From the NCBI GenBank assembly GCA_032128875.1, contig JAVLKG010000001.1, forward strand, positions 480,001-544,000: a stretch of DNA of 64,000 nucleotides, written 5' to 3'. Positions 36,828 through 59,700 of this stretch are shown piece after piece. Source of the stretch: Candidatus Melainabacteria bacterium 17Bon1m (GTDB lineage Bacteria; Cyanobacteriota; Vampirovibrionia; Obscuribacterales; Obscuribacteraceae). How positions within the stretch are numbered: the stretch's first letter is position 1; every line of letters begins with the position of its first letter. The notes beneath the pieces were generated by a model. The model saw nothing but the letters and a program-made list of their open reading frames with translations, was not told the origin of the DNA and did no database searches. Made by a program: the position numbers and the translations under genes.

Positions 36828-36860
36828 TTCCGGAAAAATTCACGTATCAACTGCTAACAT
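36828..36860 (+). promoter_or_regulatory. Shared direct-repeat promoter, copy 1
   Basis: TTCCGG-N5-TTCACG-N10-TAACAT upstream of ATG 36890. Confidence 0.6.
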
Positions 36861-36889
36861 CCCCTCACTGATACCCCAGGTTTTTAGAA

Positions 36890-37462
36890 ATGTCCTTTAC
36901 TAACAAGCTTCTCCGGCTGTGCCCCTATTCATTAATGAGCTTCGGGCTCTCGCTGTTTCTCACGTGTCTGTGTGCGCCGGCAAACGCGCAGCAGGCAGAA
37001 AGCAAAACTGTTTACGAGTCCAAGCGGACCGCGCATAAGGTCAGCGGGTGGGAGCGCGGCTTGGTAAAACGGTCGCCAAATCTCGGCAAATATTATTGGA
37101 CGCCACTGACTGAGTACTCCCAAAATAAAGGCTCGCGTCGAACCGGCAAGGGGGTTCGGCAAGCCAGCCCCAGCGGGCAGCCAGCTCAAACTGCCAGGCA
37201 CTATGTAAAACCGCGTTTTGCCCCATTGCCCAAGAACGATCGCGCCGAGTTCTCTTGTGATGAAATTCAAACTCGTTCGGGTGTGAGTGCGAAGGTAAGC
37301 TTTGATAAAGCACGCAGCCAGCTCGCTTCGCGTCGAGTTACGGATTCAACAAATGATTGCTCTGCTGTTCTCACTTACGGAGACAAGGAAAAGGGAGAAG
37401 GCTACAGCTATAAACGACAAGATTTGTCGGTCAGTGGGCGCCTCTACAATCAAAAGAAATAG
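36890..37462 (+). CDS. Secreted basic hypothetical protein
   Basis: Signal peptide ending ANA; 190-aa ORF with its own promoter motif. Confidence 0.6.
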   Translation: MSFTNKLLRLCPYSLMSFGLSLFLTCLCAPANAQQAESKTVYESKRTAHKVSGWERGLVKRSPNLGKYYWTPLTEYSQNKGSRRTGKGVRQASPSGQPAQTARHYVKPRFAPLPKNDRAEFSCDEIQTRSGVSAKVSFDKARSQLASRRVTDSTNDCSAVLTYGDKEKGEGYSYKRQDLSVSGRLYNQKK

Positions 37463-37770
37463 AATTCGAAAAGGACAAGCTCCCGGCCGTGCTGAGAGCT
37501 TGTGAAAGCAGTACGAGTTAGGAGCGATTTTTCCCCTGAACTGCAATTTTTGTGCGCGCATCGCAGAGAACCCATCTGCTGTGCGCGGTTTCGCTGTGTT
37601 GACTGGTGCTCTCTGGTTCAGTTTGTTTTACGTCGCCGGCGTTTTTCAAAACGCTGACATTGACACTTGATTGAAACAATTGACCTTCAGAATTCAGAAA
37701 TCCCGAGCCCGCCCTCCCAAACAATTGTCCGCCCGTTTACGGCCGGCAAGCTTTTAAAAGGAATACCACT

Positions 37771-38823
37771 ATGGGTCAAACCATCGGATTTCCCGCTAAT
37801 GCAGCAAAATTGAATCGCGGCCCGCGCACGGCAGCACGCAAGAGACTAGAAAGACAATTACTAAGTCAGAACACTGCAAAAGGGTCTAGTGCCGCCAATG
37901 AGTCCCGCGAGAAGGAAGACGCCGGCGCCCGGAGAAGTTTAGACCCCGAGGCACAATTGCCTGCGAATGAAGAAGAAGCCGACGTCGAAGTTTATCTCGA
38001 TTTGCCGGAAGAATGGTTTGGTCTAACAACACCAACCACTAAGTATGACTACGATGTTTATTTGACGACTGAAACGTTTAAAGCGGCTGTATATGCGCAT
38101 AATCGCGAATATCGTTATGTAGAGCGTTTGTTGCCTGACGGGAAGACTGAGACGATTTATTCGGGTCCGAATTTTCTAGACAGCCGCACTGTAATTGAAG
38201 ACGCCAACGGTCAAATCATTTGCACCATCAGGGCTAATCACCTGGGTAACGGTGTCATTGAAGTGCGATACCTGGCTGATGGCTCATACACCACAGAACA
38301 CCAAGCGCCCGAAGAGCACGACAATTTCAGCTATGAGAAAGATAATCGAGGGCGCATCACCAGCTTGACCCTGGGCGATGGCACTCATTTAAAACTCGCT
38401 TATGGTGGCACTAGTCCTACGCCGTATCTTTTTATAGATGCCGACGGTGTCGAATGGCGGCGCTGTCCGCGTACTGAAGTGTTTAAGAACGAACAAGGGG
38501 AAAACCTTGGTGGCAAGCCTGTTCAGATGGTCGCTGCCAACGAGTCAGGCTCGTACATGTTTGCAAGTTATGGTCGCTACACAGTGATGCACAGAAATGG
38601 TTTCATTGAAGAGCGCTACTTTCCGACCATTCGTGATTTGTTGGATCAAGATTTGCCGGTGACGGTGGCAATTCGCAACGAGAAAGATCGTGAGCGTGCC
38701 GACAAATTCACAGACAGTTTGCGTGCTCAGTATGCAAATGCCGATCTTAAAGTGGAAGTCTTGCCTTGCGAAGACAAGGACGGTGCCATCGTAAATGGTC
38801 GCCACGTGAGCCGTTTCTACTAG
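37771..38823 (+). CDS. Hypothetical protein with YD/RHS-like beta-hairpin repeats
   Basis: AAGGA RBS; LPDG, DANGQ, YEKDNRGRITSL hairpin motifs. Confidence 0.55.
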   Translation: MGQTIGFPANAAKLNRGPRTAARKRLERQLLSQNTAKGSSAANESREKEDAGARRSLDPEAQLPANEEEADVEVYLDLPEEWFGLTTPTTKYDYDVYLTTETFKAAVYAHNREYRYVERLLPDGKTETIYSGPNFLDSRTVIEDANGQIICTIRANHLGNGVIEVRYLADGSYTTEHQAPEEHDNFSYEKDNRGRITSLTLGDGTHLKLAYGGTSPTPYLFIDADGVEWRRCPRTEVFKNEQGENLGGKPVQMVAANESGSYMFASYGRYTVMHRNGFIEERYFPTIRDLLDQDLPVTVAIRNEKDRERADKFTDSLRAQYANADLKVEVLPCEDKDGAIVNGRHVSRFY

Positions 38824-38856
38824 GGGCTAAGCGCATACAGCGCCTTGCTAAATTGA

Positions 38857-39042
38857 TCAGACGATATCTTTTACGTCGGTAAAACCTTCTAGTTGGCTTA
38901 CAAAAGAGTCGACAAGCCATTTGTCGCTCTGCGGGCAATCTTTCATTGCGCTTCTGAAAAGCTGCATTGCTTGTTCTTCTTCACCTTTTTCGAGCAGGTC
39001 ACGGGCAACAAGTAATTTCAACAAGCGTTTTTCGAGAAGCAT
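38857..39042 (-). CDS. Small helical hypothetical protein
   Basis: 61-aa amphipathic ORF with a GGAG RBS. Confidence 0.45.
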   Translation of the reverse strand: MLLEKRLLKLLVARDLLEKGEEEQAMQLFRSAMKDCPQSDKWLVDSFVSQLEGFTDVKDIV

Positions 39043-39256
39043 GTTAGGCCGACTCCGTGGTGTCCTTACTCGACCATCTTGAATGTAGTGTAAAGAAGTT
39101 ACCTCCCTCGTCAGAGGGGGGTAACGTTAAATCCGACCAGGCTGGACTTTTAAGCGTTTTTGAACCTGGGTGAGGTATAGCCGGACAGCCTTCTGCTCAT
39201 CTAATCGTCGGGTCCGTCCGGCCACTTTTGTTTGACTCAAGAGAAGCTTGTTTTCC

Positions 39257-40537: not shown

Positions 40538-40648
40538 TTACGACCCCTCACCGCTTTGACCATAATATTCCCGGCCAATATGCGCGACAGCGATCTTTCA
40601 CGGCTCACGAAAGGTTAATTGGTTGAAGAACGACAAATTTCCAGAATC

Positions 40649-40681
40649 TCAACGCCAATTTCACGTTGTCTACCCTATTGT
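40649..40681 (+). promoter_or_regulatory. Shared direct-repeat promoter, copy 2
   Basis: TCAACG-N5-TTCACG-N10-TATTGT upstream of ATG 40727. Confidence 0.6.
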
Positions 40682-40726
40682 GATAACACGTCTCGAACCA
40701 CCAGATCCTTGCACGGAGAATTCCCA

Positions 40727-41206
40727 ATGGTTGATGCTGTTTACGACTCTAAGGTCGAGGCCCCGAAGCCTGTTTTACAATTCGCCGCCAGCGGTCTTCA
40801 GAGTGATGAGCGTTCTGCCGTCGGGGACCGCATTAGGCAAGAAACTGATTTGGGCAATCGTCTAATGAATCAGGACCAGGTCACCATTGGGCTAATTGGC
40901 GACGCGAGAACCCAGTTTCCGAATATGCCGCTGGAGCAGGGGCTTGTGAAGGCGCTCGAGTCCGGTAAGGAGGAAGTTTTTCAAGAGCAAAAACGCCAGA
41001 AAGATGCAGGGATGAACCCTCCACCGTTAGGAAAAATGATGGTGGACTCTGGTTTGGTTACCCAAAAACAGGTCGACGACGCCCTTGTCGAGCAGGGAAG
41101 GCTGAAAGCCGAAGGAAAACCAGCGCCGCGTATTGGCGACATTCTTGTGCAACAGTTGAAGGACAATATCGCCAAGGCAGTGGCTGATCAGAACAGCAAG
41201 AAGTAA
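40727..41206 (+). CDS. Stand-alone MshEN-like protein
   Basis: PLGKMMVDSGLVTQKQVDDALVEQ...RIGDILV resembles RLGxxLxxxGLxxxxxLxxxLxxQ; GGAG RBS. Confidence 0.55.
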   Translation: MVDAVYDSKVEAPKPVLQFAASGLQSDERSAVGDRIRQETDLGNRLMNQDQVTIGLIGDARTQFPNMPLEQGLVKALESGKEEVFQEQKRQKDAGMNPPPLGKMMVDSGLVTQKQVDDALVEQGRLKAEGKPAPRIGDILVQQLKDNIAKAVADQNSKK

Positions 41207-41297
41207 ACTTCGTTTTCATCCCGTCCTCAAGCAAGTTCTGAATAGGCTACAATCAGATCCGGCATCGGCATTGCGGGCTGATGTAACGGTGAACTTG

Positions 41298-42614
41298 ATG
41301 CTCAGGCTGATTGTTTCTCTCACAATTTTATCCGTCTCTTTTTGCTCTCCGGCGTGGTCTGCGACGAGCGAGCGCAAGATTTTGTCATTGCCGATTCTCT
41401 ATGTCACGGACCGGGAGAAAACGGTGAATCGCGGCAGCTATCAGGATTATGGTGTGCAGATGATCGAGCCGGTTGACGCGCTTTATTATGGCTGTCAGCA
41501 GGTGAAGGTCAAGCTGACCGCGAAAGAAGCCGAGGAGATGGAAAGTCTTCCCCGCTGGGGATGGCAGCTGCGCGGGGAGAAGGACCCGGACCCGTATGTT
41601 CAAAACGGACAAACAGCGGCTGCTGCGCATAGCGGACAAACTGTTCAAGCCACCCAAACAAGTAAAGAAGGAAAAGCACAGACCGAAGTTAGCGAAACCG
41701 GCGAGTCTGGAGAAAAGAGCGTAACCGGCAAAACTGGCGAGACTTCAGTGTCCCCGTCGGCCGCGGTGCCTCAGGATGCGACCAATGGGCCGAATCTTGA
41801 ATTCGGAAATCAAGTTTTCGACAAAGAATCCGACTTTCAAAGCCTCGTTGCAAAACTGCGAAGAGCGATGGAAATCAACAAACGCAAAGAGTTCATAATC
41901 TTCGTGCATGGTTGTTGCATCGGATTTGAGGGCTCGATGAATCAAGCCGCAGCACTGGAAGAGGCGACGCACATACCTGTAATCAACTATGCCTGGGGCT
42001 CTGTGAAAGGCAATTACGGCGGCTCGACGATGACTTATCCGCGATCGCAAGAGCGCTTCAATGGACTTGTGCGTCGACTTTTAAAAGAGTTTCCGGACGA
42101 GAAAATCACACTCGCCGGCAACAGTGTCGGCAATATGATGATTGTTGAATACTGCCTGGAAACTTGCGAACACAGCGACCTTCGGAAGTTCGACAATATC
42201 ATTTTGTCTCGTGCTGATATGGACGCATTTGCTTTCAAGACGCAAGTGAAACATGTGATGCGCACGACGAAGCATGTGAGTTTATACGTCGCGAAGAATG
42301 ATCCGCAAATCAATCTCTCAGGCGTTTTGCGTTGGTTTTTCAATCCGAAAGATGGAAGTGAGCGAGTTGGAAATACACGCTCCGCGGCGATGTATCATTG
42401 CGACCAACCCGTTGTTGTTTATGATGTTTCCGCGTTGCGCCTGAAGCACATTATGCCGCACAGAGCTGTTTCCGAACTGCTGAACAATGATGGTTGCACG
42501 CCCGCGGATTCGCCCGTGTACATCTACACCGCTGAAAAGGATAATGTCGTGCGAGTTGTTCAGCGCCCCGGCAAAGTCGCCGAGCGGCAGTTTGCCAATG
42601 CAAGTGGGGAATAA
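41298..42614 (+). CDS. Exported alpha/beta hydrolase (DUF900-like)
   Basis: ILYVTDR, IFVHG, GNSVG nucleophile elbow, ADMD, LYV..ND. Confidence 0.75.
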   Translation: MLRLIVSLTILSVSFCSPAWSATSERKILSLPILYVTDREKTVNRGSYQDYGVQMIEPVDALYYGCQQVKVKLTAKEAEEMESLPRWGWQLRGEKDPDPYVQNGQTAAAAHSGQTVQATQTSKEGKAQTEVSETGESGEKSVTGKTGETSVSPSAAVPQDATNGPNLEFGNQVFDKESDFQSLVAKLRRAMEINKRKEFIIFVHGCCIGFEGSMNQAAALEEATHIPVINYAWGSVKGNYGGSTMTYPRSQERFNGLVRRLLKEFPDEKITLAGNSVGNMMIVEYCLETCEHSDLRKFDNIILSRADMDAFAFKTQVKHVMRTTKHVSLYVAKNDPQINLSGVLRWFFNPKDGSERVGNTRSAAMYHCDQPVVVYDVSALRLKHIMPHRAVSELLNNDGCTPADSPVYIYTAEKDNVVRVVQRPGKVAERQFANASGE

Positions 42615-42699
42615 ACCCACAAGAATTTCACAACAACAGTCAACAATGGTCTGAATAGCACCGAGCGGTTGGCTGTTGTTTTTTGCCTCGGGTGAGTTG

Positions 42700-44831: not shown

Positions 44832-47444
44832 TTAGAAATCCTCTTCGCCCTTCTCCTTGGGGATGCTAAACCAGAAGGCGCAACCGCCAGTTTCGGCGTC
44901 GACGACGCCGACTTTTCCGCCGTGGGCAGCAATGATCATTTTGCAAATGGCGAGGCCGAGTCCGTAGCCTTTGCCTCTCGTCTTCGAGTCTGCAGTTTGG
45001 AAGAAGCGGTCAAAGACTTTGACTTTATTCTCGTCAGAAAGTCCTGGTCCGCTGTCGTTGACGTAAATCTCTGTTTGATAAGTTGTATTTTTGTGCGTGA
45101 TACTAATAGTGGTATCAGGTGGAGAATGGCTTATAGCATTGCCCAGGTAATTAACCAATACTTGTACAAGCCTATGTCTATCTGCTGTTACGACGATAGG
45201 CTTTACTTTATTGACGAGCGCGACTTTGCGTTGCAGCGCCAGCGATTGAACCGACGTGATTGCTTGATCAATTACTTCGGTAATGTCGAAATCCGAGAGT
45301 TGTATCTCAATGCGTCCGGACTCCAAGTTCTCAATTGTGAGCAGATCGTCTACTAATCCAAGCATGCGATCGACATTGGCACGGGCCGAATTTAGCTGCC
45401 GTGTGCCCAGTTCTGATGCCTCTTTTTCTACTTGCATCTGCAAAGCTCTGAGTGTTCCTTGCACGAGAATCAACGGCTCACGCAAATCGCGAGCCACCAT
45501 CTTCATAATGGTTGTGCGTTGTTTCCAAACATCATTTAGTTGCTCGGCCACGTCGTGTAATACAAAGTCTAGATACGAAATTTCGTCCGTGCCCGAAACC
45601 TGCGGTTTAAGCGGTTCTCGCAGTGGCAGGCGTGTTGAATTGTAAGTCAGTTGCTGCATGCGGCTGGAGATATCTCGGCCGAAGAGAAACACAAGAATGA
45701 AAGAGAGAAAGAGGCTGCCGATTATACCGCCGGTGATAATTCCTTCAACTCTCTGGTGCTGCTGCGCCTGAGCCTGGCGTGCGGCTTTCAATCGAGTTTG
45801 TTCTGCTTCCGAAAGTTTCAAAAATTCTTCTTGTCTGTAGATAGCGAACTTCCAAAACGGCATGACGCTGTTGTACAGTTCCATCTCGTCTTGCAGGTTT
45901 TCTTGAGTCATGTACGGGCGCATTTCGACAAATCGTTTGTATTCGACATCACCCAAATTCTTCAGTTTGTCCAGCAGCTTACGCATCTCCGCGTCGTCTT
46001 TGACTAGCTGGTAAAGATTGTCGTACTGGTGTTCTGCCATGTTGCGGTAATAGAGACCCTGTTGATGGTCTGTCGATTTTCCGTACAGCAAGTAGTTGCC
46101 CATAAAACCATAAGAGACCACTCCCATGCTCATCATGCGGTTGAGGTATGTGGCAATTTCTGTTTGTTTGTGCTCATTGATGAGCGCTGCTTCTTGCTCG
46201 TTGATGACTTGACCGATACCAGTCAAAAGCATTGTTGTCAGAGTCAGAGGCACAATCACCAAAAGCATCGCTTTCTTGAATATGCCGGGTTTGAATTTCC
46301 TTTCTTGGGCGACGCGTTCTGCTGATTGCCCGCTCAGCTCAAGCCGCATCAGTTGAGTCAATTCGTGAATGCCTGCATGATTATCTTTTTCGAAGGACTC
46401 CACACCTACTGCGGTTACTTCGGTGACATTGGCTGCCAATTTTTCCAGAGTGAGAAGGTCGTTGACGAGGGCAATCAATCGTTCTACATTCTCGGTACCC
46501 TGCGTTAAAAGCGGCTTGGCTTCCTGGTTTATCTTTTCGCCGTCCGACTTGTCGAAGACCGCCAATGACAAACTAACCGCCGAGAGCGGCGAGCGCATGT
46601 CGTGTGCCACCATCTCCATCAAATGCTTTCTGAATTGCGCGGCTTTGTTTAGCTGTGCAGACGCTTTATGCAAAATATTGTCGAGATACGCAAATTCGTC
46701 ATCGCCAAGAATTTCTTTTTCAAGAGTTACTCTTTTCGGCAGCTTGACGGCGTTTTCGATGAGGATTGCCATCCGCTCAGTGATTTCTTTGTTGAATGCA
46801 AAAAGCAGCAAGATCGCAACAATGAAGTTGACGACCATGCCCCAGTACACCACTTTCTTGGTCAATTCTCGATAGTGTTTTTCACTCGCGATTGATTTGG
46901 CGAGGCGGTCTTGCTCGTTTTGCGAAATTGAATAGAAGCGTTTGTAATTTTCGTACGCTGAGAAAACCAAACTGCGCGCGCTTCTCAACTGGCGAAAAGG
47001 CTCTTCGGCCGACTCTCCGGGAATCCACGGACGCAGCCACTTGAGTTTTTCCATCTCCGGCACTGCCAACTCATAAACTTCGCGCGCCGCACGTTTTCTC
47101 TCTTCGTCATTGCCGGCAAGAGCTAACAGAACTTTGAATTCATCAAGGGCGATTTGGACATAATGCTCGCCCTTTTCGCGTGACTTGTCGTCGCGAGAAA
47201 TCAAATAGCGGCAGTACAATCCGTACCCGACCGTACCTGCTGCAATGAGACGATTGGCGTGGATCGTCTGCTCCAGGCTATTGCGCTGATCGACAAGCGC
47301 TGATTCCGCCTGCTGACTCATCCAGCCGACCCATAGGAGCAAAATAATTTCAATCAACAGCGGGACAAAAACCAGCATTAGCCCCTTGGTAAATATCCGC
47401 CGTTTAAATTTGACGTTTGGGGTTGCTAGATCGGATTCCGCCAT
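44832..47444 (-). CDS. Membrane sensor histidine kinase with a duplicated sensor-DHp module
   Basis: Two TM-periplasmic-TM-HAMP-HisKA modules (VAHDMRSPL; VARDLREPL) and one HATPase (N, DSGPG, FDRF, G.GLGL). Confidence 0.88.
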   Translation of the reverse strand: MAESDLATPNVKFKRRIFTKGLMLVFVPLLIEIILLLWVGWMSQQAESALVDQRNSLEQTIHANRLIAAGTVGYGLYCRYLISRDDKSREKGEHYVQIALDEFKVLLALAGNDEERKRAAREVYELAVPEMEKLKWLRPWIPGESAEEPFRQLRSARSLVFSAYENYKRFYSISQNEQDRLAKSIASEKHYRELTKKVVYWGMVVNFIVAILLLFAFNKEITERMAILIENAVKLPKRVTLEKEILGDDEFAYLDNILHKASAQLNKAAQFRKHLMEMVAHDMRSPLSAVSLSLAVFDKSDGEKINQEAKPLLTQGTENVERLIALVNDLLTLEKLAANVTEVTAVGVESFEKDNHAGIHELTQLMRLELSGQSAERVAQERKFKPGIFKKAMLLVIVPLTLTTMLLTGIGQVINEQEAALINEHKQTEIATYLNRMMSMGVVSYGFMGNYLLYGKSTDHQQGLYYRNMAEHQYDNLYQLVKDDAEMRKLLDKLKNLGDVEYKRFVEMRPYMTQENLQDEMELYNSVMPFWKFAIYRQEEFLKLSEAEQTRLKAARQAQAQQHQRVEGIITGGIIGSLFLSFILVFLFGRDISSRMQQLTYNSTRLPLREPLKPQVSGTDEISYLDFVLHDVAEQLNDVWKQRTTIMKMVARDLREPLILVQGTLRALQMQVEKEASELGTRQLNSARANVDRMLGLVDDLLTIENLESGRIEIQLSDFDITEVIDQAITSVQSLALQRKVALVNKVKPIVVTADRHRLVQVLVNYLGNAISHSPPDTTISITHKNTTYQTEIYVNDSGPGLSDENKVKVFDRFFQTADSKTRGKGYGLGLAICKMIIAAHGGKVGVVDAETGGCAFWFSIPKEKGEEDF

Positions 47445-47524: not shown

Positions 47525-48214
47525 ATGGCGAAGATACTCATCGTAGAAGATGATACCGAACTTGCAAAGAGTATTGCCGACTGGCTTACTCTGGAGAATC
47601 ACACGGTCGAGCATGCCGAGACCGGAGAGGACGGATTGCAGCTGGTAAACGGTTACCAGTACGACCTTTTGATTCTCGACTGGCAACTGCCCGGCATTTC
47701 CGGCGTAGATGTTTGCAAGCAATACAGGCGTCAGGGCGGCGAGATGCCGGTGCTTTTCTTGACGGGCAAATCAGGCGCGGATGCCATTGAGACAGGTCTG
47801 GACGCAGGGGCGGATGACTATCTGGTCAAGCCTTTCCAGGTTCGAGAGCTTTCTGCCCGTATTCGCTCATTAATGCGTCGCCCCAAAGGTTTGCTGCCAA
47901 CCAAGTTGAAAGTGGACTATTTGTCGGTCGAGCTCGAGACGCGTACCGCAATTGTCAACAACGACCGGGTCGTTCTTTCGCCCAAAGAGTTTGCCTTACT
48001 GGAGTTTCTCTTCCGCCATCCCAACCGCTGCTACGGGGCTAAGGCACTGTTGGAAGCCATATGGCCGTCCGAGACCGAAAGTTCGGAAGATACCGTGCGT
48101 ACGATTATGAAAAACCTGCGGCGCAAGATCACGCCGGCTGGATCCGAATGTGTCATAAAAACGGTTCAAGGCTCTGGCTATATTATTGAACAGGCCGTCA
48201 CGTCCGAGTCCTGA
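47525..48214 (+). CDS. OmpR/PhoB-family response regulator
   Basis: ILIVEDD, LDWQLP, GADDYLVKPF, winged helix IKTV.GSGY. Confidence 0.93.
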   Translation: MAKILIVEDDTELAKSIADWLTLENHTVEHAETGEDGLQLVNGYQYDLLILDWQLPGISGVDVCKQYRRQGGEMPVLFLTGKSGADAIETGLDAGADDYLVKPFQVRELSARIRSLMRRPKGLLPTKLKVDYLSVELETRTAIVNNDRVVLSPKEFALLEFLFRHPNRCYGAKALLEAIWPSETESSEDTVRTIMKNLRRKITPAGSECVIKTVQGSGYIIEQAVTSES

Positions 48215-48264: not shown

Positions 48265-48297
48265 TTCACGTTTAATTCACGTGTCGGCACTTACTAT
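48265..48297 (+). promoter_or_regulatory. Shared direct-repeat promoter, copy 3 (perfect repeat)
   Basis: TTCACG-TTTAA-TTCACG-N10-TACTAT. Confidence 0.7.
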
Positions 48298-48303
48298 CAT
48301 GTC

Positions 48304-48585
48304 ATCGAAGACGTCAGTCCGACATCACTGACGACGGCGATACTGAAAGGCTCGAGCAGGTTCACCATCCTCCTCGCTCGCGTCGCGAAAACCAATCGAA
48401 CCGCATTCGGTGGTCTGCCCCACAGTTTGCATTCTGTGCTCGTAAACCGAAATTCACGCGTCGCTTTACGAGCCTCGATTGGATTTATCCCCCGCCCATC
48501 TATAACTAAATAAGAATTGCCTTGCAGGCTAAGAATTTTGTGCAAGGGGGGAGAGGGGCTTTCGAGCCTCTCTCTCGGGCTTTTT
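48304..48585 (+). ncRNA. Candidate structured non-coding RNA (~280 nt)
   Basis: Promoter upstream, no ATG inside, at least 7 helices including a multibranch domain, 3' UUCG hairpin followed by a T-run. Confidence 0.55.
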
Positions 48586-48719
48586 GTATTATTCTCCGCG
48601 CTTATCTATGACGTCTATGGTGGACGTCTCCTGATACCACAGGTAGTTTTACGCCGGTCGTTTATCGCTGGTAATTCGCCAGCCAGCGTTGGGCAATGCC
48701 AGGCATCGCCCCGCCCGAA

Positions 48720-49946
48720 CTAATAAACGCGAACTGGCCTGCCGCTTACTTTTTTCGCTTCGAATTTCGGCTTCTCCGGATTGCGTCCGAAAGAAACTCC
48801 GAACGTCTCGAAAAGCGCTACATCTGCCGGATCTACAAGGCGCTGAACAATTGCTTCTTTGACGTCCATGTATTCCAGGTTGCCGGCGCGATAGGAGACG
48901 ACGGTCACACCGTTTATTCCTTGGGTAACCAGTTCTACTGCAGCTGAGCCGACTTCCAGACCGAAGTTGGAATCGAGTGCCGATGAGGCTCCGCAGCGCA
49001 CCATGTGGCTGGGGCGAATCTCGCGAACTTCAGGAATTTCGTACACGCCTTCGACAAATTGTCCGGTGCGCTTCATGAATTCTTTGATTTCAGGATCGGC
49101 TTTGATGCGGTCTTCGATTTGTTTTACGACGTACTTTCCAGCTCCCATCAGTTTTCTATGACCAAAGGAGTCTGGTTCTGAACTCATGTCTACGAGTTCG
49201 TTGCCCGACGCATCTCTCAAGCCTTCTGCGACGACGACCACGCAAGTGCCCGCTTTGACGTCGCTTTCTTCGATCCGCTTGATGAATTTGCCTTTCAATT
49301 GTTTGTACAAAACGTCGAAGTCGACTGGAATTTCTGGAATCAAAACAGCATCGCAATCCGCTGCTACACCGCCGCGGAATGCTGTGTGACCTGCGTAGCG
49401 TCCGAACACTTCCATGACGATGATGCGGTTATGAGTGCGACCGGTAGTCTTCAAATCGCGCACAGCTTCAGCGATTCTGTTGATAGTCGAATCGCCGCCA
49501 ACGCTGTAAGGCATCAAATCGAGGTCCATTGTTTTTGGCGCATGAACGCATGGAATGCCTTGAGAAGCCAGATCTGCTACCACCGAGCCGGTGTCGTCGC
49601 CGCCTGCGATTACCAATGCATCGAGCTGAAACTTCTTCAGACCTTCTTTGATACGGTCGTATTTCTTTTCGTCTTTGATTTTTGAAACTTTCACTCGTGA
49701 GTTGCCGGCCTCGCTGCCAGCCACGATGACGTCGATTTGTTCTACGCGGTCAGCGGTCAGCTTGCAAAGGGATTTGAATTCGACCAGATTGTAAAGTCCA
49801 GCGTAGCCGTTAGGGATGATGTACGCCGTCATTCCCTTGGAAAGAGCTGTCAGTGCTGCTCCCTTGATAACGCCGTTCAGACCGCCGCAGTCGCCGCCCG
49901 ATGTAATGATGCCAATATTTTTCACGCTGCCTCCAATGTCTTTCAT
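48720..49946 (-). CDS. pfp: 6-phosphofructokinase, probably PPi-dependent
   Basis: TSGGD..GLN, GGDDT (Asp form), PKTMD (Lys), EVFGR.AG, D.FGH. Confidence 0.85.
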   Translation of the reverse strand: MKDIGGSVKNIGIITSGGDCGGLNGVIKGAALTALSKGMTAYIIPNGYAGLYNLVEFKSLCKLTADRVEQIDVIVAGSEAGNSRVKVSKIKDEKKYDRIKEGLKKFQLDALVIAGGDDTGSVVADLASQGIPCVHAPKTMDLDLMPYSVGGDSTINRIAEAVRDLKTTGRTHNRIIVMEVFGRYAGHTAFRGGVAADCDAVLIPEIPVDFDVLYKQLKGKFIKRIEESDVKAGTCVVVVAEGLRDASGNELVDMSSEPDSFGHRKLMGAGKYVVKQIEDRIKADPEIKEFMKRTGQFVEGVYEIPEVREIRPSHMVRCGASSALDSNFGLEVGSAAVELVTQGINGVTVVSYRAGNLEYMDVKEAIVQRLVDPADVALFETFGVSFGRNPEKPKFEAKKVSGRPVRVY

Positions 49947-52394: not shown

Positions 52395-52433
52395 GCGAAC
52401 CAGCTTATGCGAACCAGCTTAAGCGAACCAGCT
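52395..52433. repeat. 14-bp tandem repeat, ~3 copies, over a stop codon
   Basis: GCGAACCAGCTTA(T/A) units. Confidence 0.85.
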
Positions 52434-53144
52434 GCTGCTGATTTGCTGATTTACTGGAGCCAGCGCGCGGGTCTTCAAAATTGCGTTCAAACCAGAGCTG
52501 GTTTGTGTCGGCTTTGCAGCTACTGCGACTGGCGCGGCGATTGCCATTGCTGCTACCGGCTCTCCAACAGATACTAACTCAGCAACTGCCACGGCAACTT
52601 CGTCGAGATGAACAGGTTTTGCCATTGCTGTGAAATCAACAACCGTGATCACGCCTTCATCGCTGTCTTCAGTTTCTTCTTGCGGTGCGATAAATGAATT
52701 GATCGGTGCAATGAAGTTGGATGATGTTTGGCGCTGGGCTTCCATTTCCGCATGCACTTGAGGCATATGTGAGGCATAAATCTTTGCCAACTCTTGAGCA
52801 AAATTCCTTGCTGCTTGTTCGCGCTCGATTGGTTCGATAGGGCAGAAGGTGTTTGCCTTTTCTACTTGAGCTGCTTGCTTCTCTTGAACATAGGTGGGCA
52901 CTTCCGGCACAAACAAATTTGCCTTGGGTACCACAGCTTCGATGTGTTCATAGCCGTCACTGACCACCGCCATCTTTGAGAGCAGCGAGGTGCAGGTTTC
53001 TTCTTCGATTGCCATTGGGATATCGGATACCGACATGCAAGCGTCGAATGACTTGCCTTTGTCGGAAGAAGCCAGAGGCGGTGGCATGAAGCAGAATCTA
53101 TCGTCTTCTTGCTTGACCGATCTCGGAGGGTCTACATTTCGCAT
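52419..53144 (-). CDS. Hypothetical protein (type C), homologous to the C-terminal tail of the 817-aa paralogue
   Basis: GAGG RBS; shared motifs RF...PPP, TV.DFT and S.SW(F/W) at the C-terminus. Confidence 0.65.
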   Translation of the reverse strand: MRNVDPPRSVKQEDDRFCFMPPPLASSDKGKSFDACMSVSDIPMAIEEETCTSLLSKMAVVSDGYEHIEAVVPKANLFVPEVPTYVQEKQAAQVEKANTFCPIEPIEREQAARNFAQELAKIYASHMPQVHAEMEAQRQTSSNFIAPINSFIAPQEETEDSDEGVITVVDFTAMAKPVHLDEVAVAVAELVSVGEPVAAMAIAAPVAVAAKPTQTSSGLNAILKTRALAPVNQQISSSWFA

Positions 53145-53186
53145 CTATGATTCCTCGGGACTTCGAACTTTGATGGAGTTGTTCAG

Positions 53187-53219
53187 ATAGTAACTGGCAG
53201 TGAGTTAATTTCTCGTGAA
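53187..53219 (-). promoter_or_regulatory. Shared direct-repeat promoter, copy 4
   Basis: Minus strand reads TTCACG-AGAAA-TTAACT-N10-TACTAT. Confidence 0.65.
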
Positions 53220-53284
53220 TATCAATTTGGTTTACAGCTATTTTTCAACTTTGCTTTCCGTAGTTTGACCCAAAATTGTTGCAG

Positions 53285-55096
53285 CTATGTAACTGCGGTT
53301 TGATTTCCGTTGGTGTTTGGATTTGTCAGCGGGGGCATTTTGATTGGGTCGTTCCAAACACCGGTGACCGGGTTGAACGTTTTGCTGTGAGTATTGCGGT
53401 ACTCGGATACGTAAATCGGGTCGATGCCTTCGATGCCTTCGAGTCCGAGCAATCTTCCTGTCGAAGCGACTTCTTGCGGTGGGAGTGGAACGAGTTTGGG
53501 GTCCACTGCGGCAACGCGGATTGGTTTGTTGGGAACTGTGAGGAAAGCAGGAGCGACGTTCGGTTTGCGAATTCCGTTTTCGTCCAGGTCGGCAACTTGC
53601 GTTTTCGGCTTCGGAAGCAGTTGTGTTCTTGCTGCAACTTGCGTCGGTGTTTGATCCGGAACGATGTTCGGAGTGGTATTTGGGGTGGTGTTCGGAGTAG
53701 TGTTGTTCGAGCCGGTATTGCTGCTGCCGCTCTTCTTGCCACCCTTGCCGCCTTTTCCGCCACCTTTGCCAGCTTGTTGAGCTGCTTTGGCGCCGAGTCT
53801 TTCGGCTTCGGAGGCTGCACCGCGCATCAGACCAGCGAAGTCGAATGCATACTTAACAGCTGCTGTGGCGAGGAAGTTGCAAGCGCTGACGATGTAGAGA
53901 CCGCTGGAAGCTTCGCTTTTAGTAAGGGCGAGGATGAGGATGACGACGTTCCAGAAGAAAGACCAGAATGCCAGAGTGATTACGCCTTGGCACCATGCCG
54001 GGAATGCGTCTCTGAAGAGCTTCATCGGCCAGACCCAGAGCGCTGCCATGATTGGTCCGACGAAGAAGAGGTAGTACATGAACGCCATTTGGAAGGCGGT
54101 GAGGATAGACCATGCAGTGTTGATGCCGGCGTTGGACATGAACATAGCCATGCGCATACCGAGCGAACCTTGGCTCATGGTTCCGTCGTCGCGGTTGGCT
54201 GGAACTTCATTGAGACCGACGCAAGGATCAACCAGTTTGCCCCACATCATTCCTTCGCCTTTGGCGAAAGGCTCGTTGCCGCGGGGGGAAGTGTCGGCTG
54301 GCGGGAGGTTGGCGATGCTGCCGTCGTTTTCAGACAAGGAGCGAACACCGAAAGCGCGGATTTCAGCGCACATCGCATCTTGGTACATGTCGGTGCCTTG
54401 AATGCGGCGGTACTCGGAAGCGATGGTGTACTGGAGGCTATTGCCGAGGTCGATTGAGTAGTTGACGACGAGGTAGGTGCTGGGGACGAGGAAAACGCCG
54501 ATGATTGCGCGTTGGATGCCTTCGAGTGGGCTAGCTTGTCCGACCATGCACGGATTGCCTTGGGCGATGATCGCTCTGACTTGTGTGAGCACTGCGCCTG
54601 GAAGAATGAGAAGCAGAGCCATCGGTACGAAGAATCCGTCGCGGAGTCTGTTCCAACGGTTGCCACCTTCGGTGGTGAAGTTCTTCATCACGCGCTGGCA
54701 GTAGTCGATTGCTTGAATGGCTTGCTCGCGAGCAATTTCACCAGCATTGTTGCCAGCTTGATTTTGTTGAGCTTGCTGGGTTGCTTGTGCTTGCGGAACA
54801 GAGTTGCTGGGTTTTTTCTGTTTTGCTACGGTTCTGTCTGCTCTGTTTTCCATAACACGAGCTTGCTGCGTGTTGTTCCACAGTCCAGGAACGAGCTTCA
54901 GCGATTCTGCCGTTGCATCGAGCTGGGGCATACCCACGTAGGTGTCCCAGTTTCTGTTTTGTACAGAGAGTGGGTCGCCTTTGGCGTTGGCATCAAAACA
55001 AAAAGCAGTCACTACGAACAGTGCTGCCATCAAAGCAAGTACAACCGACTTGGCTGATTTGTTATCGGTGAAAACCGAAGAAACGCTGCGTGTCAT
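53285..55096 (-). CDS. VirB6/TrbL-like polytopic membrane protein, type B2
   Basis: Signal/TM N-terminus; conserved core (AIDYC..NFTT.GGN.WN, FVP..L, GPIMAALW.WP..F..W...TL.FW); Pro/Gly-rich tail. Confidence 0.7.
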   Translation of the reverse strand: MTRSVSSVFTDNKSAKSVVLALMAALFVVTAFCFDANAKGDPLSVQNRNWDTYVGMPQLDATAESLKLVPGLWNNTQQARVMENRADRTVAKQKKPSNSVPQAQATQQAQQNQAGNNAGEIAREQAIQAIDYCQRVMKNFTTEGGNRWNRLRDGFFVPMALLLILPGAVLTQVRAIIAQGNPCMVGQASPLEGIQRAIIGVFLVPSTYLVVNYSIDLGNSLQYTIASEYRRIQGTDMYQDAMCAEIRAFGVRSLSENDGSIANLPPADTSPRGNEPFAKGEGMMWGKLVDPCVGLNEVPANRDDGTMSQGSLGMRMAMFMSNAGINTAWSILTAFQMAFMYYLFFVGPIMAALWVWPMKLFRDAFPAWCQGVITLAFWSFFWNVVILILALTKSEASSGLYIVSACNFLATAAVKYAFDFAGLMRGAASEAERLGAKAAQQAGKGGGKGGKGGKKSGSSNTGSNNTTPNTTPNTTPNIVPDQTPTQVAARTQLLPKPKTQVADLDENGIRKPNVAPAFLTVPNKPIRVAAVDPKLVPLPPQEVASTGRLLGLEGIEGIDPIYVSEYRNTHSKTFNPVTGVWNDPIKMPPLTNPNTNGNQTAVT

Positions 55097-55129
55097 GTAT
55101 GCAGTGCCTGGGGGGTGGGGGACCTTTAG

Positions 55130-55162
55130 ATATTAAAGAGGAGATCGTGAAAACCACGTGAA
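55130..55162 (-). promoter_or_regulatory. Shared direct-repeat promoter, copy 5
   Basis: Minus strand reads TTCACG-TGGTT-TTCACG-N10-TAATAT. Confidence 0.7.
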
Positions 55163-55396
55163 CGCGCAAATTTAGGCGCCTGTGAAGGTTTTGGCTGTTG
55201 AGCCGAGCGAATGTTCACCCTCATGTTCACGCTGAAATTCACGCGATCAAGCCAGAGAATTAATGTGTTTTTTTTCGAGACGTAACTCGACATCAATTCG
55301 ACCCAAAAAAATTTGAGTAGAAGAACGCCGACCTCCGATTTTTTGTCTATCTCGGATTAATTTTTGCCGTTTTCTGAGGCGTTTCTTTAGCTGAGG

Positions 55397-58060
55397 CTAT
55401 TTGCTGTCACCCGCTTTGTCAGCCAGTTCCGCAGCTTTCTGACCAGCTGCTTTGACGAGTCCACCGAAGTCGAATGCGTATTTGACAGACGCTGTGGCGA
55501 GGAAATTGATGGCTGTCACCATGAAGATGCCTGTGTCGTCGGTCCCTTTGAAGCACGCTAGAAGCAAGATTGTGGTGCTCCAGAACAAACTCCAGAAGCA
55601 CAGCGTGACTACGCCTTCAACCCAGCTGCCGAACGCGTCTCGAAGGAATTTCATTGGCCACACCCAGAGCGCGGCCATGATTGGTCCTACAAAGAAAAGG
55701 TAATAGAAAAATGCCATTTGGAATGCGCAGAGAATTGACCAGCCTGTGCACATCGCTGCGTTGGTCGTGTTTAGCAGTGAACGTACAGCAACGTTGGAGG
55801 ACTCGATACTGGCGTCGTCTCTGTTCGCTGGAACCAGGTGTAGTCCCGAACAGGGGTCTTCTAATTTGCCCCATATTCGCGCTTCTGCTTTTGCGAAGAT
55901 ACCCTGCGGATTTCGAGGTGTGAAGTCCCATGGTGGGGTGTTGAGCGAACTATCGTTCTCTGACACATAGCGAGGACCAAAGGCGCGAATTTCAGCGCAC
56001 ATGGCGTCCTCGTACATGTCTGTTTGGAACAGCCGCTTGTACTCATCAGCAACGGTAAATTGAATACTGTTGCCTAAGTCAATCGCGTAGTTACAGATTA
56101 AATAGCTTCCCGGAATTAAGAAAACAGCTATCATGCCGCGCTGCATTCCATCGATTGGGCTGACTTGCCCAACGATAGGCGAACCTTGCGAAATAATCGC
56201 ACGCACTTGGCACACGACTGCGCCTGGCAGCAAAATAAGAATCGCCATCGGCACGAAGACACCATCGCGGAACCTGTTCCACTTATTGCCGCCTTCGGTT
56301 GTGAAATTCCTCATGAAGCGTGAGCAATAGTCGATAGCTTGTACCGCTTGTTCTCTCGCGATGTCTGCAGCGGAGTTACCTGCTTGGTTTGCTTGTGCTT
56401 GCCCTGATGCTTTTGCTGCTGGAGTTGAGTTTTTCGGTTGACGAGCCAACCCGGCCATCCGCTCTGCTGCTAGGAACTGAGTCTTTTGAATCTGGTCGTT
56501 CGTAGCAAGTGCAGTGTCTGCTGCCAAAGCTTTTGCCTTAGCAGCAGCTTCTCGCATGTAGGTCGTTTTATAGACCTCGTTCTGCAAAATGTTTGCGTTG
56601 TTCTGCCTGTTTTGATTTTGGCTTTGCTGGTTGCCTTGCGACTGCCCGCCACCGTTGTTGCCGCCGCCATTGTTGCCACCATTGCCGCCTCCGGCCCCGT
56701 TACCGCCTCCGCCGTTGTTGTTTCCAACTCCAAAGGCGCCGCCACCTTGCGGCAAATATTGCTGCAGTTGTTGCTGCAAATTTTGGTTATTGGGCTGTTG
56801 CTGAAGCGCATTTTGCATCGCTTGCTGACGCGCGAGACGCTGCGCAGCCAGCGCTTGCTGTGTCCGCTGCTGCGGTGTCAGTTGCGACTGTCCTTGCGGC
56901 TGATACCCACCTGCTTGTGGGGTGAACGTAACCGCTGGCTGCCCCGTCGTGCCACCAGGCAGTGTTACTCCGCCACCGCCTTGGGGTACCTGTGCTCCCG
57001 GAAACGGAAGATTCCCTAACTGTGGAAGTTGAGGAAACTGCAGGTTCGGAAATGGAAGTTGTGGTAATTGAATTTGAGGACCGCCCGGCAATTGAAGCGT
57101 CGGGAGGTTGGCGGAAACATTAGGCGCCTGGCCCTGAATGGTGGGAAGTTGTCCCTGGACGTTGACACCTAATTTAGGAACTTGAGCCTTTAGTAAAGGC
57201 GCTTGACCTTGCAGTGTGGGCAGCTGTCCGTTGACGCGAACATTGAGACTGCCCTGGGCACTTCCGTTTCCGCCCCTGACGCGGCCATTCACGCTCAGCC
57301 CGTTTCCATTCGCGGTGGCACGGATACTGCCGCTGGAGTTGCCTCCATTGTTTCCGCTGGCACTTCCGCGGACGTTTCCGCCAGCACTTGCACTAATGCT
57401 TCCGCTGCCGCCGCCGTTTCCACCTGAATTTGCACTGATGCTTCCGCTGGCATTGCCCCCAGCGCTTCCATTGGCGTTTCCACTTATACTTCCGCTGGCG
57501 TTTCCACCGGCATTACCACCAAAACTGCCGCTCGCACTGCCGCTCACACTGCCGCCGCCCTGTGCTTGTGAGCTTGAACCAAAAACGGTGACGCCGCTGC
57601 CCGGTGCGGGAGTTGTGTAGCCGGTTTTGCCTTTCTTGTTATTTTTTGCGACTTTGCCTTGACCAGCTTGTTGCCCCTGTGAATTTTGCTGGGTGGTTTG
57701 AGTCGGATTTTGGCGAAGCAATTGCAATAGACTTTGCATTTGCTTTTGGTTTTGCATCTGTTTTAGTAAAGCTTGCTGATGTTGCAGCTCCTGCTGCCCC
57801 ACTGCAGGCTGAGAGCCTGAACTGGAGCCAGCCTTGGCTTGAGCACTGGTGCCTGAAACTGATCCCGAAACAGATACGGAACCAGAGCCAGAACCGGAAC
57901 CGGAACTGGAACCCTTCTTGCAATGCGCAGGCTTCTTGATCGGTGCCCCTTTGTCACAAGAATGCGTTTGCGCGGTTGCGCCCACTGTCGACACTAAAAT
58001 TGCCCCAAGTGTCAGCAGGCTGTAGGCGATTGATAATCTTCGGTATTTCAAGGAAGTCAC
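55397..58060 (-). CDS. VirB6/TrbL-like membrane protein, type B1, with a long Gly/Ser/Asn/Gln-rich N-terminal region
   Basis: GTG start with GGAG RBS; same conserved core; low-complexity repeats. Confidence 0.7.
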   Translation of the reverse strand: MTSLKYRRLSIAYSLLTLGAILVSTVGATAQTHSCDKGAPIKKPAHCKKGSSSGSGSGSGSVSVSGSVSGTSAQAKAGSSSGSQPAVGQQELQHQQALLKQMQNQKQMQSLLQLLRQNPTQTTQQNSQGQQAGQGKVAKNNKKGKTGYTTPAPGSGVTVFGSSSQAQGGGSVSGSASGSFGGNAGGNASGSISGNANGSAGGNASGSISANSGGNGGGSGSISASAGGNVRGSASGNNGGNSSGSIRATANGNGLSVNGRVRGGNGSAQGSLNVRVNGQLPTLQGQAPLLKAQVPKLGVNVQGQLPTIQGQAPNVSANLPTLQLPGGPQIQLPQLPFPNLQFPQLPQLGNLPFPGAQVPQGGGGVTLPGGTTGQPAVTFTPQAGGYQPQGQSQLTPQQRTQQALAAQRLARQQAMQNALQQQPNNQNLQQQLQQYLPQGGGAFGVGNNNGGGGNGAGGGNGGNNGGGNNGGGQSQGNQQSQNQNRQNNANILQNEVYKTTYMREAAAKAKALAADTALATNDQIQKTQFLAAERMAGLARQPKNSTPAAKASGQAQANQAGNSAADIAREQAVQAIDYCSRFMRNFTTEGGNKWNRFRDGVFVPMAILILLPGAVVCQVRAIISQGSPIVGQVSPIDGMQRGMIAVFLIPGSYLICNYAIDLGNSIQFTVADEYKRLFQTDMYEDAMCAEIRAFGPRYVSENDSSLNTPPWDFTPRNPQGIFAKAEARIWGKLEDPCSGLHLVPANRDDASIESSNVAVRSLLNTTNAAMCTGWSILCAFQMAFFYYLFFVGPIMAALWVWPMKFLRDAFGSWVEGVVTLCFWSLFWSTTILLLACFKGTDDTGIFMVTAINFLATASVKYAFDFGGLVKAAGQKAAELADKAGDSK

Positions 58061-58091
58061 TTTAGAATTTCTCCGGGTCGAAAACCAATGA

Positions 58092-59633
58092 TTAAGCTCT
58101 ACCTTGGTGGTGCGGCGAGCCGCCTTTCTTACCGCCACTGGCGCCATTTTCACTGGCTTCTCTGGCTTTTTCGAGCAGTCTGTCGACCAATTCGCCCGGT
58201 TTTAATTCGAATGGTGCAAAGGGTACGTACATCATCATAACCATGAAGCACATGAGCATGAGTCCTTCCCACTCTGTGTTTGGTACATATTCACCAATTT
58301 CTCTGAGCCAAGAAATACGGGTGACCATGACAAACACAATCAGGACCCACCAGAATCTCCAAAGAGATAGTGTTACTACTGCATTTACCCAATTTATAAA
58401 GACTGGTTTGAATAATCTGCCTACGCTACCCGGCCATGCATAGAGGGCGGCGGCGATAGGTCCCATCAAAAGAAGGTAGCAGCTCATTGCCAACTGGAAT
58501 GCTGCGAGGATGAGCAAGCCAACTCCCATAGACATATTGATCATGCCGGAAGCCATTTGGAAGGTTTGATCTTTAAATTCTTGCGGATCGAGACCGTCTC
58601 TGAGTTGACCTCTGGCTTCTTTGGCTTGTTGCTGACCAAGTGCCCATTGAACGACTTCATTTGCAGTGAATTGCTGTGCGATTGCATAGGTCATCGAGTT
58701 ACCGACGTCAATCGAGTAGCTCATGATCAATTGAGTAGAAGGAATAAGGAAAAGAGCAATCATTGCGCGGAGGATATGTCCCAGCGGTCCGCCTTGGTTG
58801 TCTTCGTCAGGATTTGCGAATTGGGAGATCATCAGCTTCATTTGAAGGATGACGGCTCCCGGTACGAGAAGGAGAAGAGCCATCGGCAGGTAAACATGGC
58901 GGTACATTTGCTGCACCATGCCGATTGCTTGTGATACCGGACGGAAAGGAGCGCGGGTGCTGCCGGTTGTGCCGACTGCTTCGTTGGCTACATTTATGTT
59001 GCCTGCCAGAAGCATCGGGATGTAATCGGAGAGTGCATCGCAGTTGCCATTTTGCATGGCATCGCCCGCTGCCTGCATTTGACCTTGCATGTCGCTAACT
59101 GCGTTGGGTATTGCTTGCTGGGGAGCGCCACCGATTGCTACTTGCTGTGTTGTTGCATTGTCGGCCGCCAAGGCTTGCTGTGGGTTGCCTGCCGGAGTGC
59201 GAGGATAAGTAGGTTGTTCTTTGGTGAAGTTGTTTTGGTATCCCTTATTACCTGTGTTAGAACCTTCTTGGTTCTTCTTGCGCTGCTTCATCATTTCGAT
59301 AGTAAGGGTGTAATCGCGAAGTCTCGTTCTATCCGGAGCCGGCTTCGACTCGTGAACGTATGGGGTGCCTTCGCAATTAGAATCCGGACGCGGCTGAGCA
59401 TCGTGAAGAGCTGACAACGGGTGGTCTTGGTTCCAGCGTCTTTGCTGCTGGGTGAGAGAGTTGCCTTGTCTTTGAGCCAAAGCATCTTGAGCGACGGCGC
59501 CGAACATGATGACCATCAAGATCGCAAGCGCGAGGGTCTTGGTCATTTGACCGACCTTTGCTGCTTTGGCGATGTTGGTAAGGAGGTTACGAGTAAAAGC
59601 CGACTCGTCCGGCGAAAAAACGCGGTTTGTCAT
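58092..59633 (-). CDS. VirB6/TrbL-like membrane protein, type A
   Basis: YLPMALLLLVPGA, YSIDVGNS, MGPIAAALYAWP..F..W...TL.LW. Confidence 0.7.
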   Translation of the reverse strand: MTNRVFSPDESAFTRNLLTNIAKAAKVGQMTKTLALAILMVIMFGAVAQDALAQRQGNSLTQQQRRWNQDHPLSALHDAQPRPDSNCEGTPYVHESKPAPDRTRLRDYTLTIEMMKQRKKNQEGSNTGNKGYQNNFTKEQPTYPRTPAGNPQQALAADNATTQQVAIGGAPQQAIPNAVSDMQGQMQAAGDAMQNGNCDALSDYIPMLLAGNINVANEAVGTTGSTRAPFRPVSQAIGMVQQMYRHVYLPMALLLLVPGAVILQMKLMISQFANPDEDNQGGPLGHILRAMIALFLIPSTQLIMSYSIDVGNSMTYAIAQQFTANEVVQWALGQQQAKEARGQLRDGLDPQEFKDQTFQMASGMINMSMGVGLLILAAFQLAMSCYLLLMGPIAAALYAWPGSVGRLFKPVFINWVNAVVTLSLWRFWWVLIVFVMVTRISWLREIGEYVPNTEWEGLMLMCFMVMMMYVPFAPFELKPGELVDRLLEKAREASENGASGGKKGGSPHHQGRA

Positions 59634-59667
59634 TCGTGGGCTCTGGGGGCGTCAGGGCTACACGAAG

Positions 59668-59700
59668 ATAGTAGTTAGGGGAACGTGAAAGTAGCGTGAA
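59668..59700 (-). promoter_or_regulatory. Shared direct-repeat promoter, copy 6
   Basis: Minus strand reads TTCACG-CTACT-TTCACG-N10-TACTAT. Confidence 0.7.

Follow-up and report, generated by a model that had tools for sequence, protein, structure and literature searches.

The 64-kb stretch of Candidatus Melainabacteria bacterium 17Bon1m analyzed here (contig JAVLKG010000001.1, positions 480,001 to 544,000; hereafter the window) raises the question of why one short and rigidly spaced element, TTCACG-N5-TTCACG-N10-TAnnnT, recurs between genes, and which protein reads it. An original prediction, made from the sequence itself, proposed that six such sites define an undescribed regulon, controlled possibly by a regulator of the OmpR family encoded at 47525 together with an odd kinase. 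Our comparison with related genomes suggests that the sites probably mark a real, conserved local regulon in which one signal would co-activate a set of membrane proteins along with a new RNA. The reading that we favor, with somewhat better than even confidence, is that the sites are promoters dependent on activation by a single OmpR/PhoB-type regulator, most probably the protein encoded at 47525-48214.

Six promoter-like sites of fixed geometry

We searched both strands of the window for the 33-nt pattern, allowing up to two mismatches, and took the chance level from 100 dinucleotide-preserving shuffles of the window. The paired repeat TTCACG-N5-TTCACG occurs exactly three times, at 48265(+), 55162(-), and 59700(-), against 0.01 expected, and none of the 100 shuffles contained three. 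The full pattern with up to two mismatches gave seven matches against 0.20 expected, a number reached in 0 of the 100 shuffles. The six sites of the original prediction were recovered with its coordinates, strands, and spacing (Table 1); to call them six copies overstates the matter, since only three are exact and those at 36828, 40649, and 53219 carry two mismatches apiece. The seventh match, at 27543(-), falls within the coding region of a CNNM transporter and was rejected as probably due to chance. A position weight matrix trained on the six sites scored them at 29.9 to 39.9 bits, against at most 11.4 bits elsewhere, a circular comparison that was not used as evidence.

All six sites lie between genes, have a repeat period of 11 bp, and stand exactly 10 nt from a -10-like hexamer of the form TAnnnT (TACTAT in three and TAATAT, TAACAT, and TATTGT in the others), as had been claimed for them. 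Five point at a start codon, found 29 to 42 nt beyond the -10 hexamer rather than the 30 to 50 nt first given, and the remaining one, at 48265, faces a 505-bp gap separating two convergent genes. A -35 hexamer at a spacing of 16 to 18 nt is absent from all six, the best match to TTGACA amounting to 0 to 3 of 6 positions. The lack of a -35 hexamer and the geometry of the repeats fit activation by a dimer of the OmpR/PhoB type, and the Pho-box-like arrangement ascribed to the sites, with 11-bp repeats replacing the -35, holds for every one of them. The reverse-orientation half-sites upstream of site 5 (Table 1), at least two copies of which are visible in most orthologous loci, may constitute an extra binding site.

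Table 1. Positions of the sites and of the genes and other features discussed in the text (coordinates are those of the window)
Feature	Position	Strand	Description
Site 1	36828..36860	+	TTCCGG-N5-TTCACG-N10-TAACAT; distal half-site degenerate, 2 mismatches; ATG 29 nt on
190-aa protein	36890-37462	+	Candidate target of site 1; signal peptide
Site 2	40649..40681	+	TCAACG-N5-TTCACG-N10-TATTGT; distal half-site degenerate; ATG at 40724, 42 nt on
160-aa protein	40724-41206	+	Candidate target of site 2; MshEN-like motif
DUF900 hydrolase	41271-42614	+	Downstream of the site 2 protein; a small membrane protein also follows
Sensor histidine kinase	44832..47444	-	Divergent from the regulator; two tandem modules, each transmembrane-periplasmic-transmembrane-DHp
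OmpR/PhoB-family response regulator	47525..48214	+	229 aa; candidate binder of the repeats
Site 3	48265..48297	+	Exact TTCACG-N5-TTCACG-N10-TACTAT; 51 nt past the regulator stop codon
Candidate noncoding RNA	48304..48590	+	About 290 nt, from site 3; terminator-like 3' end
241-aa acidic protein	52419-53144	-	Candidate target of site 4; no family match (Pfam, NCBIfam)
Site 4	53187..53219	-	TTCACG-N5-TTAACT-N10-TACTAT; proximal half-site degenerate; ATG of the 241-aa protein 42 nt on
Array of five paralogous polytopic membrane proteins	53285..63711	-	603, 918, 513, 817, and 450 aa; uncharacterized family
603-aa array protein	53285-55096	-	Behind site 5
Site 5	55130..55162	-	Exact motif with TAATAT; ATG of the 603-aa array protein 33 nt on
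Reverse-orientation half-site cluster	55214..55243	+	TTCACC, TTCACG, TTCACG; 12-bp period; about 55 to 80 nt upstream of site 5
918-aa array protein	55397-58153	-	Overlaps the 513-aa gene
513-aa array protein	58092-59633	-	Behind site 6
Site 6	59668..59700	-	Exact motif with TACTAT; ATG of the 513-aa array protein 34 nt on

Conservation of the sites in related genomes

Related loci were retrieved from genome contigs with the 603-aa array protein as the query, giving 24 (L001 to L024; 386,424 bp, scanned on both strands), all from metagenome-assembled genomes (MAGs) of Candidatus Obscuribacterales/Melainabacteria. L001 to L012 are syntenic with the window, and L013 to L024 are paralogous array copies elsewhere in the genomes; the footprint covers sites 3, 4, 5, and 6, sites 1 and 2 being over 10 kb away from the gene used as the query. 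With 97% identity in the query protein and 95.8% nucleotide identity in the regulator gene, L001 therefore represents a genome closely related to the source but not the same sequence.

The same scan with up to two mismatches returned 36 matches in the 24 loci, of which 31 are exact, one has a single mismatch, and four have two; about 7e-4 exact matches would be expected in this amount of DNA at equal base frequencies (2 x 386,424 / 4^15). All 36 fall in L001 to L012, at the positions of sites 3 to 6 plus one further array promoter in L010, and L013 to L024 yielded none. Site 3 is kept in 10 of the 10 loci extending to the 3' end of the regulator gene, the rearranged L006 included, site 5 in all 12 orthologous loci (in L012 with one mismatch), and site 6 in all 9 that reach that point. 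The additional site in L010 is exact and stands at the head of the next array unit; in the source genome, a seventh site is probable a little past base 64000, where a further array gene runs off the end of the window.

Conservation is distributed unevenly over the sites and their surroundings. Among the orthologous loci, pairwise identity is 0.96 to 1.00 in the half-sites and 0.97 to 1.00 in the -10 hexamer, 0.54 to 0.96 in the 5-nt spacer and 0.67 to 0.78 in the 10-nt spacer, and 0.35 to 0.49 in the 100 nt upstream (aligned with MAFFT); the third codon positions of the regulator gene, which served as the neutral yardstick, are 57 to 72% identical in L002 to L011. Judged by these alignments, the sites are one motif class under strong selection.

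Some further regularities were seen around the sites. A C-rich element, CCCCCAG(G/A), is common to the 5' untranslated regions (5'UTRs) of regulon genes, 12 to 20 nt before the start codon (59634-59667, 55097-55129, and 36861-36889), and is found also in the paralogous loci L013, L014, L016, and L019; CCCCCAG occurs only four times in the window, two of the occurrences being in regulon 5'UTRs. The 5'UTR behind site 6 is nearly invariant between species. About 35 nt upstream of the same site (window ~59735-59760, minus strand), GAAGATTAAA is conserved in L001 to L011, flanked by variable, mutually complementary arms, and could form a hairpin or be bound by a protein.

The adjacent two-component system

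The protein encoded at 47525-48214 is by its sequence a canonical OmpR/PhoB-family regulator, as the original prediction had it. It matches Response_reg (PF00072, E 4.7e-28) and Trans_reg_C (PF00486, E 9.9e-20) in Pfam and aligns over its full length with solved proteins of the family, the closest being DrrD (1kgs, E 1.6e-39), and in the alignment the acidic pocket, the phospho-acceptor Asp, the Thr, and the Lys are all kept. It does not reach the NCBIfam equivalog cut-offs for RppA (201.3 versus 250 bits) or PhoB (TIGR02154, 178.3 versus 296.2 bits). In nine other genomes, the regulator is 96.5 to 100% identical in amino acids, and its third codon positions there are 57 to 89% identical; amino acid identities in the same genomes are 83 to 99% for the kinase, 92 to 99% for a phosphofructokinase, and 45 to 92% for the 241-aa protein. 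The regulator is thus conserved more strongly than the neighboring phosphofructokinase. In the protein database, its orthologues fall into a single cluster at 90%, beyond which identity drops to 66% in the next relatives.

The divergently encoded kinase, whose likely start is Met18 of an open reading frame running to 47495, deserves the description "odd" that it had been given. In the first of its tandem sensor modules, the DHp domain retains the His but lacks an ATPase domain; in the other, the DHp domain has Arg in place of the His and is followed by the sole HATPase_c domain.

Several features of gene order tie the repeats to this regulator. In all 10 loci, the distance from the regulator stop codon to site 3 remains about 50 nt, and in L006 the phosphofructokinase gene and a patatin gene are inverted, yet site 3 still adjoins the regulator. 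No site seen in the window or in the loci scanned is farther than about 12 kb from that gene. Moreover, in L013, L014, L016, L017, and L019, a paralogous pair of 513-like and 918-like array genes adjoins a paralogous regulator and kinase. These regulators are about 40% identical to the 47525-48214 protein and differ in the recognition helix, the kinases have a related N-terminal module, and the promoter region in L013, L014, L016, and L019 contains a related but different element, TTCACC-N6-TTAWCT-N8-TATTCT. Because this pairing between two-component system and array recurs, the adjacent regulator is favored, short of proof. The claim of an undescribed regulon stands as a conserved motif class (sites 3, 5, and 6 in 9 to 12 other genomes and site 4 in 4), whereas the adjacent regulator, which most probably binds the repeats, is assigned to it by linkage and conservation only.

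A candidate structured RNA behind site 3

The suggestion that a noncoding RNA (ncRNA) is among the targets has fared well: site 3 likely drives a conserved, structured ncRNA of about 290 nt, to judge from the alignment, compensatory changes, folding energy, and a terminator. An alignment of 10 sequences has a mean column identity of 82%, and a terminator scan located at the 3' end (48549-48586) a 12-bp GC-rich hairpin followed by a run of T residues; conservation ends at this hairpin, in the rearranged L006 as elsewhere. RNAalifold predicted 66 pairs for the alignment. In a pruned set of 57, 96.1% of cells pair, and seven pairs show compensatory changes, values that 0 of 500 column shuffles reached, and shifting the partners by one to three columns lowers pairing to 36 to 46%. 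Support from covariation is modest because most helices are invariant. The z-score of single-sequence folding is -3.3. A search of Rfam 15 found nothing at the gathering score, and the best match in permissive mode had an E value of 2.4. With a profile hidden Markov model, we found one copy of the RNA per locus, always adjoining the regulator.

A small protein encoded in the 48298-48720 gap was considered and rejected, the short open reading frames there being broken in the alignment by insertions and deletions whose lengths are not multiples of three, which argues against coding. Predicted pairing of the RNA with five regulon 5'UTRs ranged from -24.6 to -37.5 kcal/mol, and 28 control UTRs gave a mean of -29.4 and a minimum of -38.7 kcal/mol; the pairing is within the control range, and direct targeting is therefore unsupported.

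Products encoded behind the other sites

Sites 5 and 6 stand before members of the array of paralogous membrane proteins, a sixth copy of which ends near 63800 and continues off the window. The 513-aa and 918-aa genes overlap and for that reason probably form one operon. In these proteins, a signal peptide and low-complexity linkers precede a shared core, about 350 aa in length, for which five to seven membrane helices are predicted, and the tails of several are long and rich in Pro/Thr. Their relatives (58 matches) come, where the source is named, only from MAGs of Candidatus Obscuribacterales/Melainabacteria, and a profile search of 1.84 billion representatives found 419 family members at an E value of <=0.001, many of them 1,000 to 3,000 aa long and the longest 3,174 aa.

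The array had been called VirB6-like, a label supported neither by Pfam nor by a fold search of the PDB. No Pfam TrbL match was obtained at an E value of <=1 for 30 family members or for the proteins of the window, a Pfam scan of 16 long members for tail domains gave two marginal matches only, and a sequence search of the PDB with the family profile yielded nothing significant (best E 0.11). A first AlphaFold model was poor (predicted local distance difference test [pLDDT] score, 61), and its highest-probability fold match, 8rtd_L of the R388 type IV secretion system (T4SS), was not significant (E 0.69). The core encoded at 62362-63411(-), modeled from the 58-sequence alignment, reached a pLDDT of 85.2 and a predicted template modeling score (pTM) of 0.79, and Foldseek found no PDB match to this model at an E value of <=0.001. 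TrbL comes up through language-model features and as no more than a lead: at 0.88, the ESM-atlas feature neighbors of the array proteins include TrbL, TrbL_2, TrbL_3, and TrbL_4 clusters. The window contains no other type IV secretion genes.

Two observations on the array concern its rearrangement and spacing. The tails of the 603-aa orthologues in L006 (10293-10667) and L012 (7369-7731) resemble the tail of the 817-aa protein; this likeness, and the 241-aa gene without a motif promoter in L005 to L011, suggest that the tail and the small gene have been reshuffled between species. In the gap from the truncated array gene to the 450-aa gene (63712-63800, minus strand), a unit of about 14 bp, CCTAAGCGAAAC, is repeated in tandem, with two copies and a partial third; the gap lacks the TTCACG motif.

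Behind site 2, the product had been described as MshEN-like; its match to the NCBIfam model NF053729, for the MshEN domain that binds c-di-GMP, is under the cut-off (23.8 versus 38 bits, E 2.9e-5). No pst, pho, or other phosphate genes occur in the window or the loci. Farther upstream, a 546-aa TPR protein (30511-32151, minus strand) has a C-terminal match to the ATLF metalloprotease-like family PF07737 (E 2.6e-7, 31 versus 27.4 bits).

Discussion

We infer from sequence the binding, the activation, the identity of the regulator, the transcription starts, and the signal in the scheme that follows. The sites would be activator-dependent promoters of the sigma-70 type, with a good TAnnnT -10 and no -35 hexamer, in which two TTCACG half-sites in direct repeat, 11 bp or one turn of the DNA apart, would be set exactly 10 nt before the -10. 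With a start 7 nt past the hexamer, the half-sites would lie at about -39 to -34 and -28 to -23, which we take to be where PhoB-type dimers contact polymerase at promoters without a -35. The pho box lies 10 bp from the -10. A phosphorylated regulator of the OmpR/PhoB family would bind the repeats as a head-to-tail dimer and recruit RNA polymerase, and it would most probably be the 47525-48214 protein, phosphorylated by the divergently encoded tandem-sensor kinase. The operons for polytopic membrane proteins would be co-activated from sites 5 and 6, and in the close clade from site 4, together with the structured ncRNA adjoining the regulator gene; the secreted 190-aa protein and the operon of the MshEN-like protein would probably be co-activated from the weaker sites 1 and 2.

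A number of observations weigh against this scheme. Site 4 is confined to the close clade L001 to L004 and is missing in 7 of the 11 loci holding the gene, the best match upstream of the 241-aa orthologue in L005 to L011 having seven or eight mismatches, and the distal half-sites of sites 1 and 2 are degenerate, the case for both being the within-window statistics alone. The conserved 80-bp region between regulator and kinase lacks the TTCACG repeat and therefore gives no sign of autoregulation. Thousands of relatives of the regulator are found at an E value of <=1e-30, the nearest outside the orthogroup at 66% identity, and further regulators of the OmpR family are surely present in the genome. 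The half-site, above all GTTCACGC at site 6, almost matches the PHO-box core GTTCAC(C/G) of actinobacterial PhoP, which shares the 11-bp period (PMC9019756).

These last points lend themselves to another explanation, in which a different winged-helix regulator encoded elsewhere, for instance one responding to phosphate starvation, binds the sites, and the adjacent two-component system is a bystander or a target. The likeness to the PhoP core, the many OmpR-family paralogues, and a regulator gene with no TTCACG site of its own speak for such an arrangement. Nevertheless, we regard it as unlikely, since neither the window nor the loci contain phosphate genes, the adjacent regulator scores well under the PhoB equivalog cut-off, and the sites all cluster round the regulator gene, with site 3 traveling with it through rearrangement.

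The same regulator could also act on the same repeats as a repressor or in a dual role, occluding polymerase between -39 and -23. None of the six promoters has a usable -35, so that they should be weak unless activated, and the fixed 10 nt to the -10 is the activating geometry of pho boxes; this option is accordingly rather improbable, even though the reverse-orientation half-sites upstream of site 5 could support looping and PhoB-type regulators can activate or repress according to the position of the site (PMC10294691). Lower still stands an alternative sigma factor whose promoter would use TTCACG as a -35-like element. It would suit an element that is conserved, bipartite, and set at a fixed distance before start codons, but the TTCACG copies end 10 and 21 nt away from the hexamer, neither of which fits a spacer of 16 to 18 nt, the downstream hexamer is sigma-70-like, and duplication at an 11-bp period typifies tandem winged-helix binding, so that we consider it very improbable. 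That the promoters were merely copied along with paralogous array genes, with no shared regulator implied, merits scarcely any credence, for although sites 5 and 6 head paralogous genes and share the C-rich 5'UTR element, sites 1 to 4 head unrelated products (a secreted protein, an MshEN-like protein, an ncRNA, and the 241-aa protein), the promoters differ outside the motif columns, which alone are invariant within each orthologous set, and the motif is missing from the paralogous arrays found elsewhere in these genomes.

Activation by one OmpR/PhoB-type regulator, the reading that we prefer, places the sites beside well-known systems. The Pho box of PhoB in E. coli and the PHO box of PhoP in Streptomyces and other actinobacteria likewise have at least two direct-repeat half-sites, spaced by one helical turn, in place of the -35 and at a short, fixed distance from the -10 (PMC9019756, PMC10294691). 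In both, the binding protein is an OmpR/PhoB winged-helix dimer (PMC9019756, PMC10294691), whose counterpart here is predicted from sequence. The boxes of actinobacterial PhoP are direct repeats with an 11-bp period whose core, GTTCAC(C/G), is almost the TTCACG of the window sites (PMC9019756), and PhoB is described as binding direct repeats with strict spacing of the box to the core promoter (PMC10294691). Unlike those systems, the one described here belongs to an uncultured, non-photosynthetic sister lineage of the cyanobacteria, its targets in the window are not phosphate genes, its regulator falls under the equivalog cut-offs for PhoB, and its kinase, unlike PhoR, has a duplicated sensor architecture.

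Two-component systems that activate a small RNA (sRNA) along with envelope genes are exemplified by EnvZ-OmpR with OmrA/B and MicF and by PhoQP with MgrR. The locus resembles them in having one type of site before membrane-protein genes and before a stand-alone ncRNA with its own terminator. It differs in that the RNA is about 290 nt long, has no Rfam family, is more conserved than typical base-pairing sRNAs, and pairs with regulon 5'UTRs no better than with the 28 control UTRs. For the array, the nearest parallel is the tandem arrays that VirB6/TrbL paralogues of T4SSs form, for example in the Rickettsiales. The array proteins of the window are likewise encoded in tandem, polytopic in the inner membrane, and equipped with a signal peptide and long tails of low complexity; as a difference, they give no Pfam TrbL match in 30 members and no PDB fold match at an E value of <=0.001, and no other T4SS genes accompany them in the window.

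The promoter architecture and mechanism proposed here are already known and belong to the textbook. A literature search found nothing on this regulator, motif, regulon, RNA, or gene family; the regulator's site and the regulon appear to be undescribed, as do the RNA and the protein family. The description of the targets as a surface/contact program is speculation. We put forward tentatively, with more doubt than conviction, the possibility that the highly conserved regulator and its two-sensor kinase, in which the phospho-accepting His is separated from the ATPase domain, serve as master switch for an envelope apparatus known, among matches with a named source, from Melainabacteria alone; the apparatus would be built of giant polytopic proteins whose confidently predicted fold has no PDB counterpart and be paired with a structured regulatory RNA of a new family; it would be an unseen cell-surface or contact system, possibly secretion-like, with a dedicated regulon.

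Almost nothing is known of gene regulation in the non-photosynthetic relatives of cyanobacteria. The predicted binding site of this regulator can be read straight from sequence conservation, which makes a direct test in a heterologous host possible even though the organisms are uncultured. The locus brings together, for study as a single unit, three unknowns, namely, a lineage-specific family of membrane proteins with no fold match, a new conserved RNA, and a sensor kinase of split function.

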